The notes below the pieces were generated by a model. It searched no databases, was not told where the DNA came from, and saw only the letters and a program-made list of their open reading frames with translations. This document shows positions 3,212-48,256 of a DNA stretch of 62,562 bases, one piece after another; position 1 is the stretch's first letter, and every line of letters begins with the position of its first letter. Source of the stretch: a virus. Location: the UHGV virus genome UHGV-0106067, one strand, 5' to 3'. The position numbers and the translations under genes are program-made.

Positions 3212-4306
3212 TTAACTGACACCAGAATCATCATAACCGCGACTTGTTATAGCTTGCCTGTATGCGTTCATTTTGCGTTCTGCGTACTGGACAACATCTT
3301 TAATGACAAGCTTATGAACAACTGAAATAAGGTCATTTATATAACAAAAGTCAGGTGACTTATTTTTCACTGGCAACCAAATAACATCGTTCTTAATTTT
3401 TCTATTACTAACACTATCCCCCCATGAATATTTATGTGAAATAGACCTATAAATACATGAAATAATGCCCAAATAAGCAAACTTTGTCCTTCCATCCTCA
3501 TTGTTAACATAGAGTCGCAAATTATGACTGTCGTTTGAAAAAAAGTCTCGCTCCTGATAAGTTACAACGAATGTCTTACCACCAATAAAAATACAGTTCC
3601 CTTTTTCCAAGAGTGAGTCATCATAGGCGATATAAGAACTAACAGAGTTATTATCACGGCTAGCACAAAGATAAGGAACATCCCCACTATTTTCTATGAT
3701 GTCTCTAGACAATATGTTTCCTGTATTGCACACTGAGAATAACTCAGTAACAGGAAAGCCTGAAAATTCAATATTTTTAAAATGTTCCAGGATAAGATAA
3801 TCTTTTTCCGTTAGTTGGTAATCACTCAGCCCAGCAGCTATCAGGTATGCTTCCAGCTCTTCTATATGGGCCGCTTCCAGCTCTTCTATATAATTATCCA
3901 TAAAAAACCAGTCAATTTCATTATTTTTCACTGGTAATGAGATGAAATATTCTCCATCTCTGAGTTTGGAACTCGATAACTGTTGACCATAATTAAAACG
4001 CCCCTTTAAAGCTTTATTAATCATACTGGCAACATACAGTCCGCGCTTTGCATTAAAGTCGGACTTACTTGATTTTAATGTAAGAACATGCACCTTCATT
4101 TCTACGCTGGCACAATAAGGATGATAAAAAGCATCTCCAAAAAAATTAACGCTTATAAAATTTTCATAATGTCTTGCATCATCCATAAACTCGGTATCAA
4201 ACTCTCCGATGATACCGTTTTGATCGCTCTTTGCTGAAACACGTTTGATTTTGCCTGGTTTTAATCTTCCTGAGGAGATAAGCGAGCCTGTGCTCACATA
4301 GAACAA
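3212..4306 (-). CDS. RM specificity subunit (HsdS/BcgIB-like, two target-recognition domains)
   Basis: 364 aa. Two variable halves separated by a helical spacer (NYIEELEAAHIEELEAYL). N-terminal WGEFRIGDLF-type motif lies just upstream of the TTG start, so the start is uncertain. Immediately follows the MTase gene. Confidence 0.7.
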   Translation of the reverse strand: MFYVSTGSLISSGRLKPGKIKRVSAKSDQNGIIGEFDTEFMDDARHYENFISVNFFGDAFYHPYCASVEMKVHVLTLKSSKSDFNAKRGLYVASMINKALKGRFNYGQQLSSSKLRDGEYFISLPVKNNEIDWFFMDNYIEELEAAHIEELEAYLIAAGLSDYQLTEKDYLILEHFKNIEFSGFPVTELFSVCNTGNILSRDIIENSGDVPYLCASRDNNSVSSYIAYDDSLLEKGNCIFIGGKTFVVTYQERDFFSNDSHNLRLYVNNEDGRTKFAYLGIISCIYRSISHKYSWGDSVSNRKIKNDVIWLPVKNKSPDFCYINDLISVVHKLVIKDVVQYAERKMNAYRQAITSRGYDDSGVS

Positions 4307-4365: not shown

Positions 4366-6327
4366 TTACTTTCCCGCAAAATTGTTTTCACCTTGTTTTT
4401 TCAGTAATTGCGAGACCTCCCATGCAAGGTAATCACCTACCGTCTTTTTGAAATCCTCCAGCGTTGGCCTAGCATCTACTGGCCTGGTCTGATTCCAGTC
4501 CTCACCACTATCAGGATCGATTGTTCCCTCAAAATATTCATCCTCCGTAAAGATATTAAGGCAACCTTTCCCGAAGTGAACCAGATCCACAACCTCCTGA
4601 TAACGCTCTTTTGCACGATCGGCATCAACAAGATTGTTTCTTGCCTTTTTGCGATTAGAGCGAGCGTAGCCGTCATTGGAAAAGTCGATAAACTTAACAG
4701 CCTGTTTCGCGTTATGCGGAATTTTTACCTGAAAAACGTAAATGTACGTCTGAACGCTTGATTTACCAATAAACAGATCCGCAGGCATTTTGATGCTTGC
4801 CAGCAAGGTATTTTCCTTGAGTATTTTTTTGTTGTACTCCGTAGCCTTTCCTGTGCCAGCTGAACTCTGGATAATCACTGCAGCATAGCCTTTATCCATC
4901 ATCGACAGCGCCTTCTGCACGAAAATCATGCCGTTACCTTTAGCTGAATACGGAGGATTGAGAATAAATGCGTCCGCAGGGAATTTTTCTCCTGTTTTCC
5001 CAAATCCATACTTGCCGTCAAAATCGGCCAGCGAGTCTTTATTGAGGATATTCGAGCTACCATCCCCCATCAAAATCATATTCAGGATGGCCAGCATATA
5101 AATACTGGATAACACCTCAAGGCCAAGAAGCTGTTCAGCCTTGATTTGCGCTTCCTTAAGTTGTAGTTCGTTCGGTGAGTGAATATTTTCTCTGGCGTCA
5201 ATGAGCATTTCATTCATTGCAGCCACAAGCAATCCCGCAGAACCTGTAGCAAAATCCCACACATAGGAATCTTTGTTTACTCTGGCGAGTCGTGCCAGCA
5301 ATGTGGCAACATAAGGTGGTGTCAGAACGACGTCATTGAGCTTGTCCTGCGTAAATCCAAGCCAGCGATACATCTCATTAAACAGTTTGCCCGTAAAATC
5401 GGTGGTCAGTCCAATTTTGTAATACTCCCCAAGATCATCAACAACTTTAACAAACACGCGCTTTAACTGGCTTTCACCGTTGACTGGTTTGTTAATGTTT
5501 TCAGTCCACAGCGTATTTTGCAACGAGCGCAAAATCATTTCTCTTTTTGTTTCAGGAACAGCTTTCAGCCTTAAAAAGTTCCTTATTTTCCTGAAAATAA
5601 TATCACCATCACGCAAGTCCTCCTCCGTTGAAGAGGTCAGTTCTTTTTTATCCAGCGGTGCTAACTTTCCCGGAATCCCCAACGTTGCAATAACGGTAGC
5701 CACAACAAGGTAAACACGATCGCTTTCACCAAGCCCCTTTTCATTCTGGTAAATATCGTTATTCAGACGGGAAAGTCGCGTGTCTATCTCTTCCTCTTTG
5801 CTGGCCTTGATTTTTTCCAGTTCTTCGGGAGGAAGATTAAGCAGCTTTATCTTGTTGAGAAATCCATCAACATTTTTGTCAGCAAGGAACGATAAGTCGG
5901 TGAATTCACCAACCTTCTGTCCGGCTCCTAAATTATTCTTTGATACGTACCACACGCCGATTTCATGATGCAGTTCGCCTGTACCATCATCGCGCCAGCC
6001 GGTCATACCAATAGCAATAATATCAGGGTAATTGGTGAACTGAAGAAGTGCGTTGGCATAATGGACTGCGCCATTCACCGCGTATCCATTAATATTTTTA
6101 AAATTCCATTCTTTTCTGGCATCTTTGTTCTCAATAATACCGTTGCTGCCAAGTCTGATAAGCCTGTCCTTGTAGCCTTTATACTCGATGAGAACGGGAT
6201 ACTGCTTGCCGTATTTGTCCTTAACAAGGAGTTTTACGTCGGGACGATTACCGCCTGCGCCGCCATTTTTCGAAAAATAAGCGTCCAGTGCGTTATCGAT
6301 CTCTCCGTTAAGTGATGCATTCTGCAA
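4366..6327 (-). CDS. Fused PD-ExK endonuclease / N6-adenine DNA methyltransferase (type IIB BcgIA-like). The listed ORF begins at an internal TTG. The SD-ATG at 6461 is out of frame because of the heptamer tract.
   Basis: MTase motif I VWDFATGSAGLL and motif IV NPPY (FILNPPYSAKG). N-terminal RPD...17 aa...IEYK nuclease motif. The frame stays open upstream through the repeat. Confidence 0.8.
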   Translation of the reverse strand: MQNASLNGEIDNALDAYFSKNGGAGGNRPDVKLLVKDKYGKQYPVLIEYKGYKDRLIRLGSNGIIENKDARKEWNFKNINGYAVNGAVHYANALLQFTNYPDIIAIGMTGWRDDGTGELHHEIGVWYVSKNNLGAGQKVGEFTDLSFLADKNVDGFLNKIKLLNLPPEELEKIKASKEEEIDTRLSRLNNDIYQNEKGLGESDRVYLVVATVIATLGIPGKLAPLDKKELTSSTEEDLRDGDIIFRKIRNFLRLKAVPETKREMILRSLQNTLWTENINKPVNGESQLKRVFVKVVDDLGEYYKIGLTTDFTGKLFNEMYRWLGFTQDKLNDVVLTPPYVATLLARLARVNKDSYVWDFATGSAGLLVAAMNEMLIDARENIHSPNELQLKEAQIKAEQLLGLEVLSSIYMLAILNMILMGDGSSNILNKDSLADFDGKYGFGKTGEKFPADAFILNPPYSAKGNGMIFVQKALSMMDKGYAAVIIQSSAGTGKATEYNKKILKENTLLASIKMPADLFIGKSSVQTYIYVFQVKIPHNAKQAVKFIDFSNDGYARSNRKKARNNLVDADRAKERYQEVVDLVHFGKGCLNIFTEDEYFEGTIDPDSGEDWNQTRPVDARPTLEDFKKTVGDYLAWEVSQLLKKQGENNFAGK

Positions 6328-6417
6328 CTTGTAATCAAGCCTGTAAGATTTAAGCCATGAGTTCGCCAGTTCGGTAATTTCCGGCTCAACAGATTTTACA
6401 GACTTTCTTGATTTACT

Positions 6418-6452
6418 GCTGGTCGCTGGTCGCTGGTCGCTGGTCGCTGGTC
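6418..6452 (-). repeat. Heptanucleotide tandem repeat (GACCAGC)x5 in the 5' coding end of the RM gene
   Basis: Five perfect copies of gctggtc on the plus strand at 6418-6452. They lie 9 nt downstream of ATG 6461 (SD AAGGA). Confidence 0.95.
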
Positions 6453-6635
6453 TGGCAGCATAAAATCATCCTTTTATGAAAATCAACGATTTTTGAGCAC
6501 TCGCACACAAAAAATTACCGCATTGGTTGCAACGACAACCTGCATTTTGCGGAGCATATGACAAATAAAGTACGGGTGCGTTGAGGATGCCAGACACATC
6601 AGAGGTGGCGGGAGATTACTCCCCTGCCTGGTCTC

Positions 6636-6791
6636 TTACTTCTCAGATTCGTAGTCTACGAAGACAGCGACCTCCGTCTGGCCGGTTCGGATTCGTACCT
6701 CGCAGAAGTCTTTCCTCGTTACCAGTGCTATCACTACGACGGTAATACAGATGACGATCAGGGCGATTAACATCGCCTTTTGCTGCTTCAT
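6636..6791 (-). CDS. hok: Hok/Gef-family type I toxin (HokD/RelF-like)
   Basis: Translated by hand: MKQQKAMLIALIVICITVVVIALVTRKDFCEVRIRTGQTEVAVFVDYESEK (51 aa). Below the ORF-track cutoff. SD AAGGAG. Confidence 0.9.
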   Translation of the reverse strand: MKQQKAMLIALIVICITVVVIALVTRKDFCEVRIRTGQTEVAVFVDYESEK

Positions 6792-6975
6792 AGCCTACTT
6801 CTCCTTGCCTTTCGGCACGTAAGAGGCTAACCTAAGTTTGTAAGTCATAGATTTGGCCTCAGATTAATGTTAAGCGTCCTGCAAGACGCGTAATGTTAAC
6901 TGGGGCTTTTCTCTGTCTGCCTTACGGCTGCATGCCCGAGGCAGACAGCCTCAAGCACCCGCAGCTATTCTACAG
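6792..6975 (-). promoter_or_regulatory. hok mRNA leader with a mok-like upstream ORF and the expected Sok antisense region; candidate -10 TAGAAT
   Basis: The leader matches the remembered R1 hok leader blocks (GCTTGAGGCTnTCTGCCTC, GGCAGAnAGA, AGCCCC, TAGCCTCTTAC, GCAAGGAGAAG). uORF ATGACTTAC...AAGTAG ends just upstream of the hok ATG (TAG-GCT-ATG). Confidence 0.6.
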
Positions 6976-6990
6976 TAAAAACTCGCGCTT

Positions 6991-7416
6991 TCAATTTCCC
7001 GCACGTCCGGCAAACTGACTGGCCTGTGATCCTGATGGTTCACGCTCAACGTACCTGTCCATTTCCAGCTTTACTCCCTGCATGATCAACATCCCCTCAA
7101 TAACACCTTCTGCTTTTTGCAGTACCCGCCCGGCCCAGCAATCAGAGCGCCCATGCTTACGGCCCAGTGACATAAGCGTCATCCCGAACACATAATAATC
7201 ATACAGAAAATCATGCAAATCGCTGTTGTTGACGTTCAGTTGCGCCATGCAATTGCTGATAATCAGCGCATCGTCATCGGTACACTGAGGCCGTGATTTA
7301 ACCTTTGACGGGATCAGCCCCTTAAATCCGGCGGCAATGGGCGACCAGCTCACATCCTCATGATTATTGGCCACCCATGCGCCCCAGCGTTCAAGCACCT
7401 GCTGAATATCACGCAT
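6991..7416 (-). CDS. Q: Late-gene antiterminator Q (phage 21/933W Q family)
   Basis: [24 protein letters not shown]... matches the remembered Q21-type N-terminus. The start was moved to M36 of the listed ORF. Overlaps the ninH stop. Confidence 0.85.
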
Positions 7417-48091: not shown

Positions 48092-48124
48092 ATGACCATT
48101 GAATGACCATTGAATGACCATTGA
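48092..48124. repeat. 11-bp tandem repeat (ATGACCATTGA)x3 upstream of the eib-like gene
   Basis: Three perfect copies read directly. Confidence 0.95.
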
Positions 48125-48256
48125 AGGACGCACTAAATTATTTTCAGCAATCCCTCAGCCTACGAAAATTCTGTATCCCCTGAATGTTTAATTTACACTC
48201 TTTTTATGCAATTATTCTTTCGACTATAAAAACACCACTATCTCATGTATGACCTT

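Follow-up and report, generated by a model that had tools for sequence, protein, structure and literature searches.

The UHGV virus genome UHGV-0106067, a stretch of 62,562 nt treated here as a whole (the window), carries on its minus strand a restriction-modification (RM) gene whose long open reading frame (ORF) follows five perfect copies of the heptamer GACCAGC. Ahead of this tract stand a Shine-Dalgarno (SD) sequence and an ATG, and behind the RM gene lies a gene for a specificity (S) subunit; coordinates are collected in Table 1. The original prediction had read this arrangement as a candidate ON/OFF switch, driven by strand slippage, on an RM gene of a phage.

The repeat and the gene behind it

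Tandem Repeats Finder reports a single array at 6418-6452, with period 7, 5.0 copies and 100% matches. Its 35-mer has one occurrence in the window and appears in 0 of 100 dinucleotide-preserving shuffles, with 3 mismatches tolerated. All six frames are open across the tract, and no frame of the heptamer offers a start codon: upstream there are just ATG 6461, with a good SD sequence, ATG 6469 and GTG 6508 (ATG 6461 and ATG 6469 are ATG2 and ATG1 of Table 1). The frame of ATG 6461 translates as MLPDQRPATSDQRPAVNQESL and ends at the TAA 6398-6396. Between the TGA at 6468-6466 and the stop at 4368-4366 the long frame runs without interruption, the tract included; about 160 codons past the TGA are free of an in-frame ATG, and its first mechanical start is TTG 6327, which has no SD sequence. 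From 6461 to 6327 the distance is 134 nt, i.e. 2 mod 3, and a copy number n of 3, 6 or 9 joins ATG 6461 to the long frame. Direct reading and Tandem Repeats Finder thereby bear out the layout first described, in which SD, ATG 6461, CTGCCA and five heptamers are followed by a stop after 21 codons, and the offset agrees with the proposed fusion at three or six heptamers. The long frame indeed lacks an ATG of its own, over a greater extent than the 100 or so codons first given.

Upstream of the tract, ATG 6461 is unchanged in all loci examined and in all three gene contexts described below, and the GGA core of the SD sequence is kept across all leaders (alignment A1). ATG 6469 shares its frame with GTG 6508; this is the third frame, fused to the RM frame at n = 1 mod 3. 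It is not present in one BcgI-like allele (L024) nor in the leader of a Type III gene discussed below, and the Prokaryotic Genome Annotation Pipeline (PGAP) places the start of another locus (L025) at GTG 6508, in the same frame. Since ATG 6461 is invariant everywhere and ATG 6469 is missing from some leaders, the former is likely the start codon used. Further 5', the motif TTGATTTT is kept, and the bases surrounding it differ among contexts (the window, and L176 and L187 at the same position). It could be a U-rich translation enhancer or a promoter element, either of them a guess.

The RM product matches the PADLOC profile REase_MTase_IIG over residues 10-675 (E = 3e-232) and Pfam N6_Mtase at 5e-21; a match to VRR_NUC, of the PD-(D/E)xK type, is weak (9e-4, below the cut-off; residues 31-87). 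The motifs PD...EYK and NPPY can both be read in the translation, with nuclease and methylase in one polypeptide. The S product matches Methylase_S in two stretches, i.e. two recognition domains, and its gene adjoins the RM gene at every locus. Behind an identical RM gene the S gene varies, being called at 364 or 367 aa or truncated at 186 or 225 aa (L181, L182 and L184 versus L177 and L178), which suggests differing or disrupted specificities between loci. By its predicted domains the pair is a BcgI-like arrangement, with nuclease and methylase in one chain and specificity in a second.

A Type I RM system, as in the PGAP name 'HsdM family', was rejected: hok, the S gene and an esterase surround the gene, hsdR is absent, and a single polypeptide includes the nuclease motif as well. 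The name kept in RefSeq is misleading because there is no hsdR gene. We also considered an internal ATG near residue 137 as the start of a methylase-only isoform, and saw no SD sequence upstream of it. A sequence search of the PDB with the RM product gave no match. An AlphaFold model built on a shallow alignment of 19 sequences was too poor to serve as evidence (mean predicted local distance difference test score, pLDDT, of 63, and below 50 at the N-terminus).

Homologues from Neisseria, Providencia and a metagenome-assembled genome of Methylophilaceae, 72-73% identical, are 677-689 aa long and start 3-10 residues ahead of a conserved segment, SVEPxIAxLANxWLKSYxLDYKLEQ, which in the window is found 3' of the tract and 5' of TTG 6327. 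Ahead of that TTG, six residues (N19, W21, L22, S24, L27 and Y29) are invariant in 19 sequences, the TTG itself being residue L31, and the PADLOC IIG profile alignment begins at residue 10. A second E. coli allele has CTG in place of the TTG, and the 30 codons before it differ mostly synonymously, for example serine TCA to AGC; the ratio of nonsynonymous to synonymous substitution rates (dN/dS) over the 30 codons between tract and TTG is 0.12-0.39 in four comparisons. Among database proteins, P0004, P0006 and P0009 start MLPDQRPATS, and P0010 starts MILCCQTS, in the frame of ATG 6469. Since the heptamer lacks a start codon and the conserved N-terminus lies 3' of the tract, translation must start upstream and pass through it: this comparison with homologues places the tract within the true coding region. 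As in RM genes that are phase-variable through a simple sequence repeat (SSR), the tract stands between start codon and conserved ORF and its unit is not divisible by 3.

Table 1. Features of the RM locus and its surroundings in the window
Feature	Position	Strand	Remarks
Heptanucleotide tract (GACCAGC)x5	6418..6452	-	every forward frame translates as (DQRPATS)n
Start codon ATG2	6459..6461	-	followed by CTG CCA (M-L-P), then the tract
Shine-Dalgarno AAGGA	6469..6473	-	7 nt 5' of ATG2; read directly from the sequence
Alternative ATG1	6467..6469	-	8 nt 5' of ATG2, in another frame; abuts the SD, poor spacing
TTGATTTT	6479..6486	-	16-17 nt 5' of the ATG; kept in all three gene contexts
Short ORF from ATG2 at n = 5	6396..6461	-	21 codons + TAA; putative OFF-state product
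TGA closing the long frame	6466..6468	-	just 5' of the tract; long frame startless when n = 2 mod 3
RM fusion gene 3' of the tract	4366..6417	-	683 codons + stop; PD...EYK near the N-terminus and NPPY N6-adenine methylase
Specificity (S) subunit gene	3212..4297	-	69 nt 3' of the RM gene; Pfam Methylase_S, PADLOC Specificity_II
hok toxin gene	6636-6791	-	between Q and the RM module
sok antitoxin RNA	6786-6960		between Q and the RM module; full-length Rfam RF01794 match, 118 bits
Q antiterminator	6991-7416	-	5' of the RM module
Promoter-like site	6994-6967		consensus match only

The module lies in a lambdoid prophage, just 3' of Q and hok/sok and 5' of a nanS-type esterase. This is the position at which Shiga toxin (Stx) phages have stx; similarity to Stx phages stops about 100 nt 5' of ATG2. 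The remainder of the window shares about 96% identity with the Escherichia phages PhiR12_3 and PhiR5_2.

Two further observations concern the tract as DNA. On the strand opposite to the RM gene, an ORF of the form (AGRWSLV)n is annotated in some records as 'YXWGXW repeat-containing protein' or 'EmrB/QacA' (e.g. L002 3738-4451; L001 4222-4839). We rejected it as a real gene, the repeat being open in six frames and the ORF length merely following the copy number. The plus-strand unit of 6418-6452 with its next base, GCTGGTCG, is one mismatch away from the E. coli Chi site, GCTGGTGG; a long array of such near-Chi octamers might affect the action of RecBCD or the instability of the tract itself. 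Elsewhere in the window, further tandem arrays lie at 60246-60310 and 48092-48129 (GATTTCATGATC x5.4 with 90% identity, and ATGACCATTGA x3.5 with 96%).

Copy number and reading frame among relatives

A 601-nt query found matches, each in two pieces that span 681-1409 nt, in phage PhiR12_3 and in 29 complete E. coli genomes, and copies were then counted at the loci; the frame statistics and the overall range refer to the 39 reliable loci with a readable tract. In these relatives the tract has 9-120 copies, and 13-120 in complete long-read genomes. For the allele of the window (allele 1) the counts are 13, 31, 38, 47, 50, 54, 56, 58, 64, 65, 66, 72, 76, 79, 82, 83 (four times), 89 and 99; other alleles have 16, 23, 55, 88, 30+63 and 120, and prophage contigs of IMG/VR have 9, 16, 19 and 34. 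A few arrays are broken by units of 5, 6, 10 or 12 nt.

This variation is found on constant flanks. The 22 allele-1 sequences have 19 distinct lengths, and 17 allele-1 loci share identical 549-nt flanks, yet show 14 tract lengths. Strains G1/2, G6/7 and G8, from one German study, have 65+12 nt+26 (about 93), 83 and 99 copies; the proteins encoded beside the locus are shared by all three, and its place on the chromosome is almost identical. These strains belong to the probiotic Symbioflor 2. In three O111:H8 strains the counts are 56, 83 and 58. Copy number thus differs among strains and among close isolates while the flanks stay constant, as expected of SSR phase variation; homologous prophages, with their 9-120 copies, agree with the variability foreseen for the repeat, which is not fixed at five. 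Some genomes hold the tract twice: JNEC-KY171 has two prophages with different alleles of the BcgI-like system (n = 88 and n = 55; L027, L188) and may contain two independent switches in one cell, and three OkiPb strains also have two copies of the leader and tract.

The reading frames are spread almost evenly: ATG 6461 is in frame with the RM gene in 10 of the 39 loci, the frame of ATG 6469 in 14, and in the remaining 15 the long frame has no start. Alleles with ATG 6461 in frame include n = 9, 54, 66, 72, 99 and 120. The 683-codon ORF is intact in every allele, and whole-gene dN/dS is 0.05-0.06 against alleles with a synonymous divergence (dS) of 0.56-1.66 (up to about 1.7), and 0.21 when the closest allele is compared. 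Alleles in frame and alleles out of frame thus coexist in nature on an ORF under purifying selection, again as in SSR phase variation. A gene so strongly conserved though out of frame in most isolates would seem to need a reversible switch: this is the pattern that such a switch predicts, and it would be hard to explain otherwise.

The count of five in the window is a separate matter. Every long-read genome has at least 13 copies, and exactly five recur in a metagenome contig assembled with MEGAHIT (L179, k119_68866). Five copies are the fewest to span a k-mer of 31-36 nt, and we infer that the minimum is tied to the k-mer of the assembler. Hundreds of short-read contigs break at the tract; among those ending within it are a Salmonella contig that begins 'ACCAGC', contigs of IMG/VR and an 841-member cluster of 'partial' proteins. 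For the same repeat on another gene, the count in GenBank was found to be 'always shorter' than the real one (Atack et al., PMC5909438). The five copies are thus probably a collapse in short-read assembly, and for that reason the phase of the window is not reliable: the earlier statement that the copy sequenced would be OFF does not hold up against the MEGAHIT contig, the 13-120 copies of long-read genomes and the published under-reporting.

A candidate translational switch and its alternatives

We think it very likely, on the comparative evidence, that the tract serves as a contingency (phase-variation) switch within the 5' coding sequence of a prophage BcgI-like RM enzyme, gating its translation by reading frame. 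Ribosomes would start at the SD-ATG of 6461, read M-L-P and continue into (GACCAGC)n. Since 7 nt cannot be divided by 3, the frame would shift with every copy added or removed; n would be altered, presumably reversibly, by slipped-strand mispairing at replication. In the ON state, with n a multiple of 3 in this allele, MLP-(DQRPATS)n/3 would be fused to the full nuclease-methylase. In the OFF state, the other two frames would end at TAA codons 0-21 nt past the tract, though the poorly placed ATG 6469 might allow weak expression in one of them. The S gene 3' would probably be reduced by polarity in OFF cells. The benefit may be bet-hedging in lysogens, defence being set against the cost of restriction. 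The slipped-strand ON/OFF switch of the original prediction is supported in its main features (a tract in the coding region, hypervariable copy number, three frames and purifying selection); it may have to be extended from two states to three on account of ATG 6469.

Several points weigh against this reading. Only about a quarter of the loci are in frame with the good ATG, and a near-even spread of frames is also expected from neutral drift with an internal start. Tracts of 50-120 copies are far above those of classical phase-variable genes, and the enzyme might be impaired by the disordered tail, up to 280 aa long, that ON alleles would have. A copy number of 83 occurs in four records of unrelated source (PhiR12_3, L001; G6/7, L011; O111:H8 7-32 9A, L014; UCPROB-002, L017), which is odd for a very unstable tract; it could be the ancestral allele of a phage that has spread recently, a favoured length or an effect of assembly. 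A scan for consensus promoters from hok to the ATG gave no minus-strand match; the gene may be expressed in lysogens or be read from the late transcript alone. Finally, long-read assemblies contain errors in the tract, such as the poly-C junk of L023 and the odd units of 5, 6, 10 and 12 nt, and because of these some individual frame calls may be wrong. L023 (NZ_CP027340) is a complete genome with a run of about 60 C and other junk within the tract, which shows that the region is hard to sequence and polish.

Could the length of the tract, and not its frame, tune expression, through a disordered N-terminal tail, the structure of the mRNA or transcription across a long GC-rich repeat? The 7-bp repeats of H. 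influenzae HMW1/2 do grade expression by length, and the tracts here are unusually long and widely spread (13-120 copies), those in frame ranging from n = 9 to 120, i.e. an approximately 13-fold range of tail length. Here the tract follows the start codon instead of lying in a promoter, however, and two thirds of the alleles are frameshifted with stops right behind the tract, so that frame must dominate. We hold such tuning to be unlikely as the main mechanism; it could add to an ON/OFF switch and not replace it. The class of length-graded promoter repeats itself (HMW1/2 type) was rejected, as the tract lies behind SD-ATG-CTG-CCA and not upstream of it.

A constitutive enzyme, made from an internal start at TTG 6327 or at an ATT or CTG nearby, would turn the tract into an untranslated leader or junk and its copy number into an irrelevance. 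Annotation favours this: PGAP and GenBank start the gene at TTG 6327 in all genomes, those with an in-frame ATG 6461 included, and in some records the protein starts at ATT (P0016). The even spread of frames is also what the lack of selection on frame would give. Against it, the six invariant residues and a conserved helix-like segment lie 5' of the TTG, the homologues of other genera start 5' of it as well, and the 30 codons before it are under purifying selection; the TTG is not conserved (CTG in allele 2) and has no SD. The SD-ATG-CTG-CCA is invariant in diverged alleles and in front of three unrelated genes, which would make no sense for an untranslated spacer. Given this, we regard an internal start as quite improbable.

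That the feature is an assembly artefact, or the gene a decaying pseudogene disrupted by repeat expansion, is very improbable: n = 5 does recur in the MEGAHIT contig L179 as the smallest count spanning a k-mer of 31-36, hundreds of short-read contigs break at the tract and the same tract was seen to collapse by Atack et al. (PMC5909438), but collapse alters only the count, the tract is present in every long-read genome, every allele keeps the 683-codon ORF unbroken (dN/dS about 0.05), and the S gene is retained.

The leader and tract on other genes, and comparison with known systems

The leader and repeat are not confined to this enzyme. Atack et al. (2018, Nucleic Acids Res 46:3532; PMC5909438) described a phase-variable Type III mod gene of E. 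coli that produces Shiga toxin (STEC), M.Eco131I (ECSTECDG1313_5492), which methylates GCC(m6A)TC and has the tract CAGCGAC[26] and the SD sequence GAGGGAA; by fragment-length analysis, cultures of three STEC strains had mixed tract lengths at this gene. The heptamer is thus the same in another register, and the same leader and start, TTGATTTT-N16-ATGCTGCCA, precede the tract, likewise in E. coli and on a mobile element. The enzymes differ: M.Eco131I is an unrelated Type III mod with a res/helicase partner on plasmids, and the protein behind the tract reads TELIRELNS, in contrast to SKSRKSVKSVEP in the window, where a nuclease-methylase fusion with an S gene is carried by lambdoid prophages. 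We accordingly rejected membership of the window's gene in the M.Eco131I family: the post-tract protein and the neighbours are unrelated, and only leader and tract are common. The Type III mod gene was found on eight plasmids of 92-117 kb (mobilisable), one of which was read; its leader, ...TTGATTTTTATTGAGGGAATTTTTATGCTGCCA[29]GACC..., aligns with the window leader TTGATTTTCATAAAAGGATGATTTTATGCTGCCA (alignment A1). The published Type III primer sequence had no match in viral contigs. The view that such a repeat is unusual for E. coli-type phages is not supported, given this precedent, the same heptamer and leader having already been published on the STEC gene (PMC5909438).

A search with the leader found it together with the tract in 39 of 5426 complete E. 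coli genomes, 31 times on a chromosome and 8 times on a plasmid. A third context came from E. coli A34 (L187, NZ_CP028741, 3400-6400): in a lambdoid prophage, Q is followed by TTGATTTT-N17-ATGCTGCCA(GACCAGC)99, in frame with an EcoRI-family adenine methylase, then an HNH endonuclease. The unit TTGATTTT-N16-17-ATGCTGCCA-(GACCAGC)n therefore stands before three methylase or restriction systems that are unrelated to one another and are carried by prophages and plasmids: the BcgI-like enzyme with its S subunit (lambdoid prophages, several alleles), the Type III mod (plasmids) and the EcoRI-family methylase with an HNH nuclease (prophage). We lean slightly towards the view that TTGATTTT-N16-17(SD)-ATG CTG CCA-(GACCAGC)n is a portable phase-variation cassette, grafted by recombination onto at least three unrelated systems on different mobile elements of E. 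coli. Temperate phages and plasmids of this species would then share an exchangeable random switch for defence genes.

Outside E. coli, Pectobacterium carotovorum DSM 30168 (L038, 6480-7700) has AAGGAG-ATG...ATGTC(GACCAGC)17 behind a different leader; the tract shares its frame with an EcoRI-family adenine methylase of 343 aa (PF13651, E = 8e-131). This locus was the only relevant hit of a heptamer scan with one genome per species, which otherwise returned mostly unrelated high-GC genomes (Planctomycetota, Streptomyces); the heptamer alone is therefore not diagnostic. In three IMG/VR contigs (L155, L160, L168), (GACCAGC)9-12 and then (ACCAGC)4 follow ...TTTTTATGTGTGGGCGAAGC in another phage context, with only short ORFs behind.

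Small-genome pathogens such as Haemophilus, Neisseria and Helicobacter are regarded as the usual bearers of repeat-driven phase variation, which is considered rare in E. coli. In the present case a defence gene on prophages of many E. coli, from O111 enterohaemorrhagic strains to commensal and probiotic ones, appears to be randomly switched. Lysogen populations would then mix restricting and non-restricting cells with different methylomes, with a bearing on phage therapy, on the prediction of host range, on the interpretation of methylomes and possibly, as a phasevarion (a phase-variable regulon), on gene regulation. There are consequences for annotation as well: the TTG start of RefSeq (653 aa; elsewhere a later one, 569 aa) drops the conserved N-terminus, and short-read assemblies collapse or break at the tract. 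The occurrence of one cassette at three methylase genes that are not related suggests that mobile elements exchange the switches themselves.

Literature searches, which covered part of the journals and left REBASE aside, found no description of this BcgI-like prophage enzyme carrying a switch, of tracts of up to 120 copies, or of one leader-start-tract cassette on three unrelated systems. We know of no BcgI-type enzyme that is phase-variable, and the searches also turned up none. In enzymes of the BcgI type (Type IIB), the A subunit holds nuclease and methylase and the B subunit specificity; the pair in the window, known here from its genes, is alike in its two-gene layout, in the N-terminal PD...ExK and NPPY methylase in one polypeptide and in an S-like subunit with two recognition domains.

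As for the switch, the closest likenesses are Cj0031, a Type IIG enzyme of Campylobacter jejuni that is phase-variable (PMC4889913), and the SSR-bearing Type I hsdM/hsdS genes (PMC7383803), which likewise have a repeat within the ORF and are turned ON and OFF by frameshift. Those genes have a poly-G tract or short repeats, with copies numbering from a few up to tens, and are chromosomal genes of small-genome pathogens, whereas the window has a 7-nt unit straight after the start codon, with up to 120 copies in relatives, on a temperate phage and with a separate S gene. The lic1 locus of H. influenzae and related loci have several ATGs in different frames, and the two starts of the window could likewise give strong, weak and off states; they differ in having tetranucleotide repeats on genes for surface structures, and ATG1 of the window is a putative start that is not conserved. 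The proposed mechanism is that of the classical slipped-strand frameshift switch of phase-variable RM genes, and with repeat and leader already published it is not a new kind of system.

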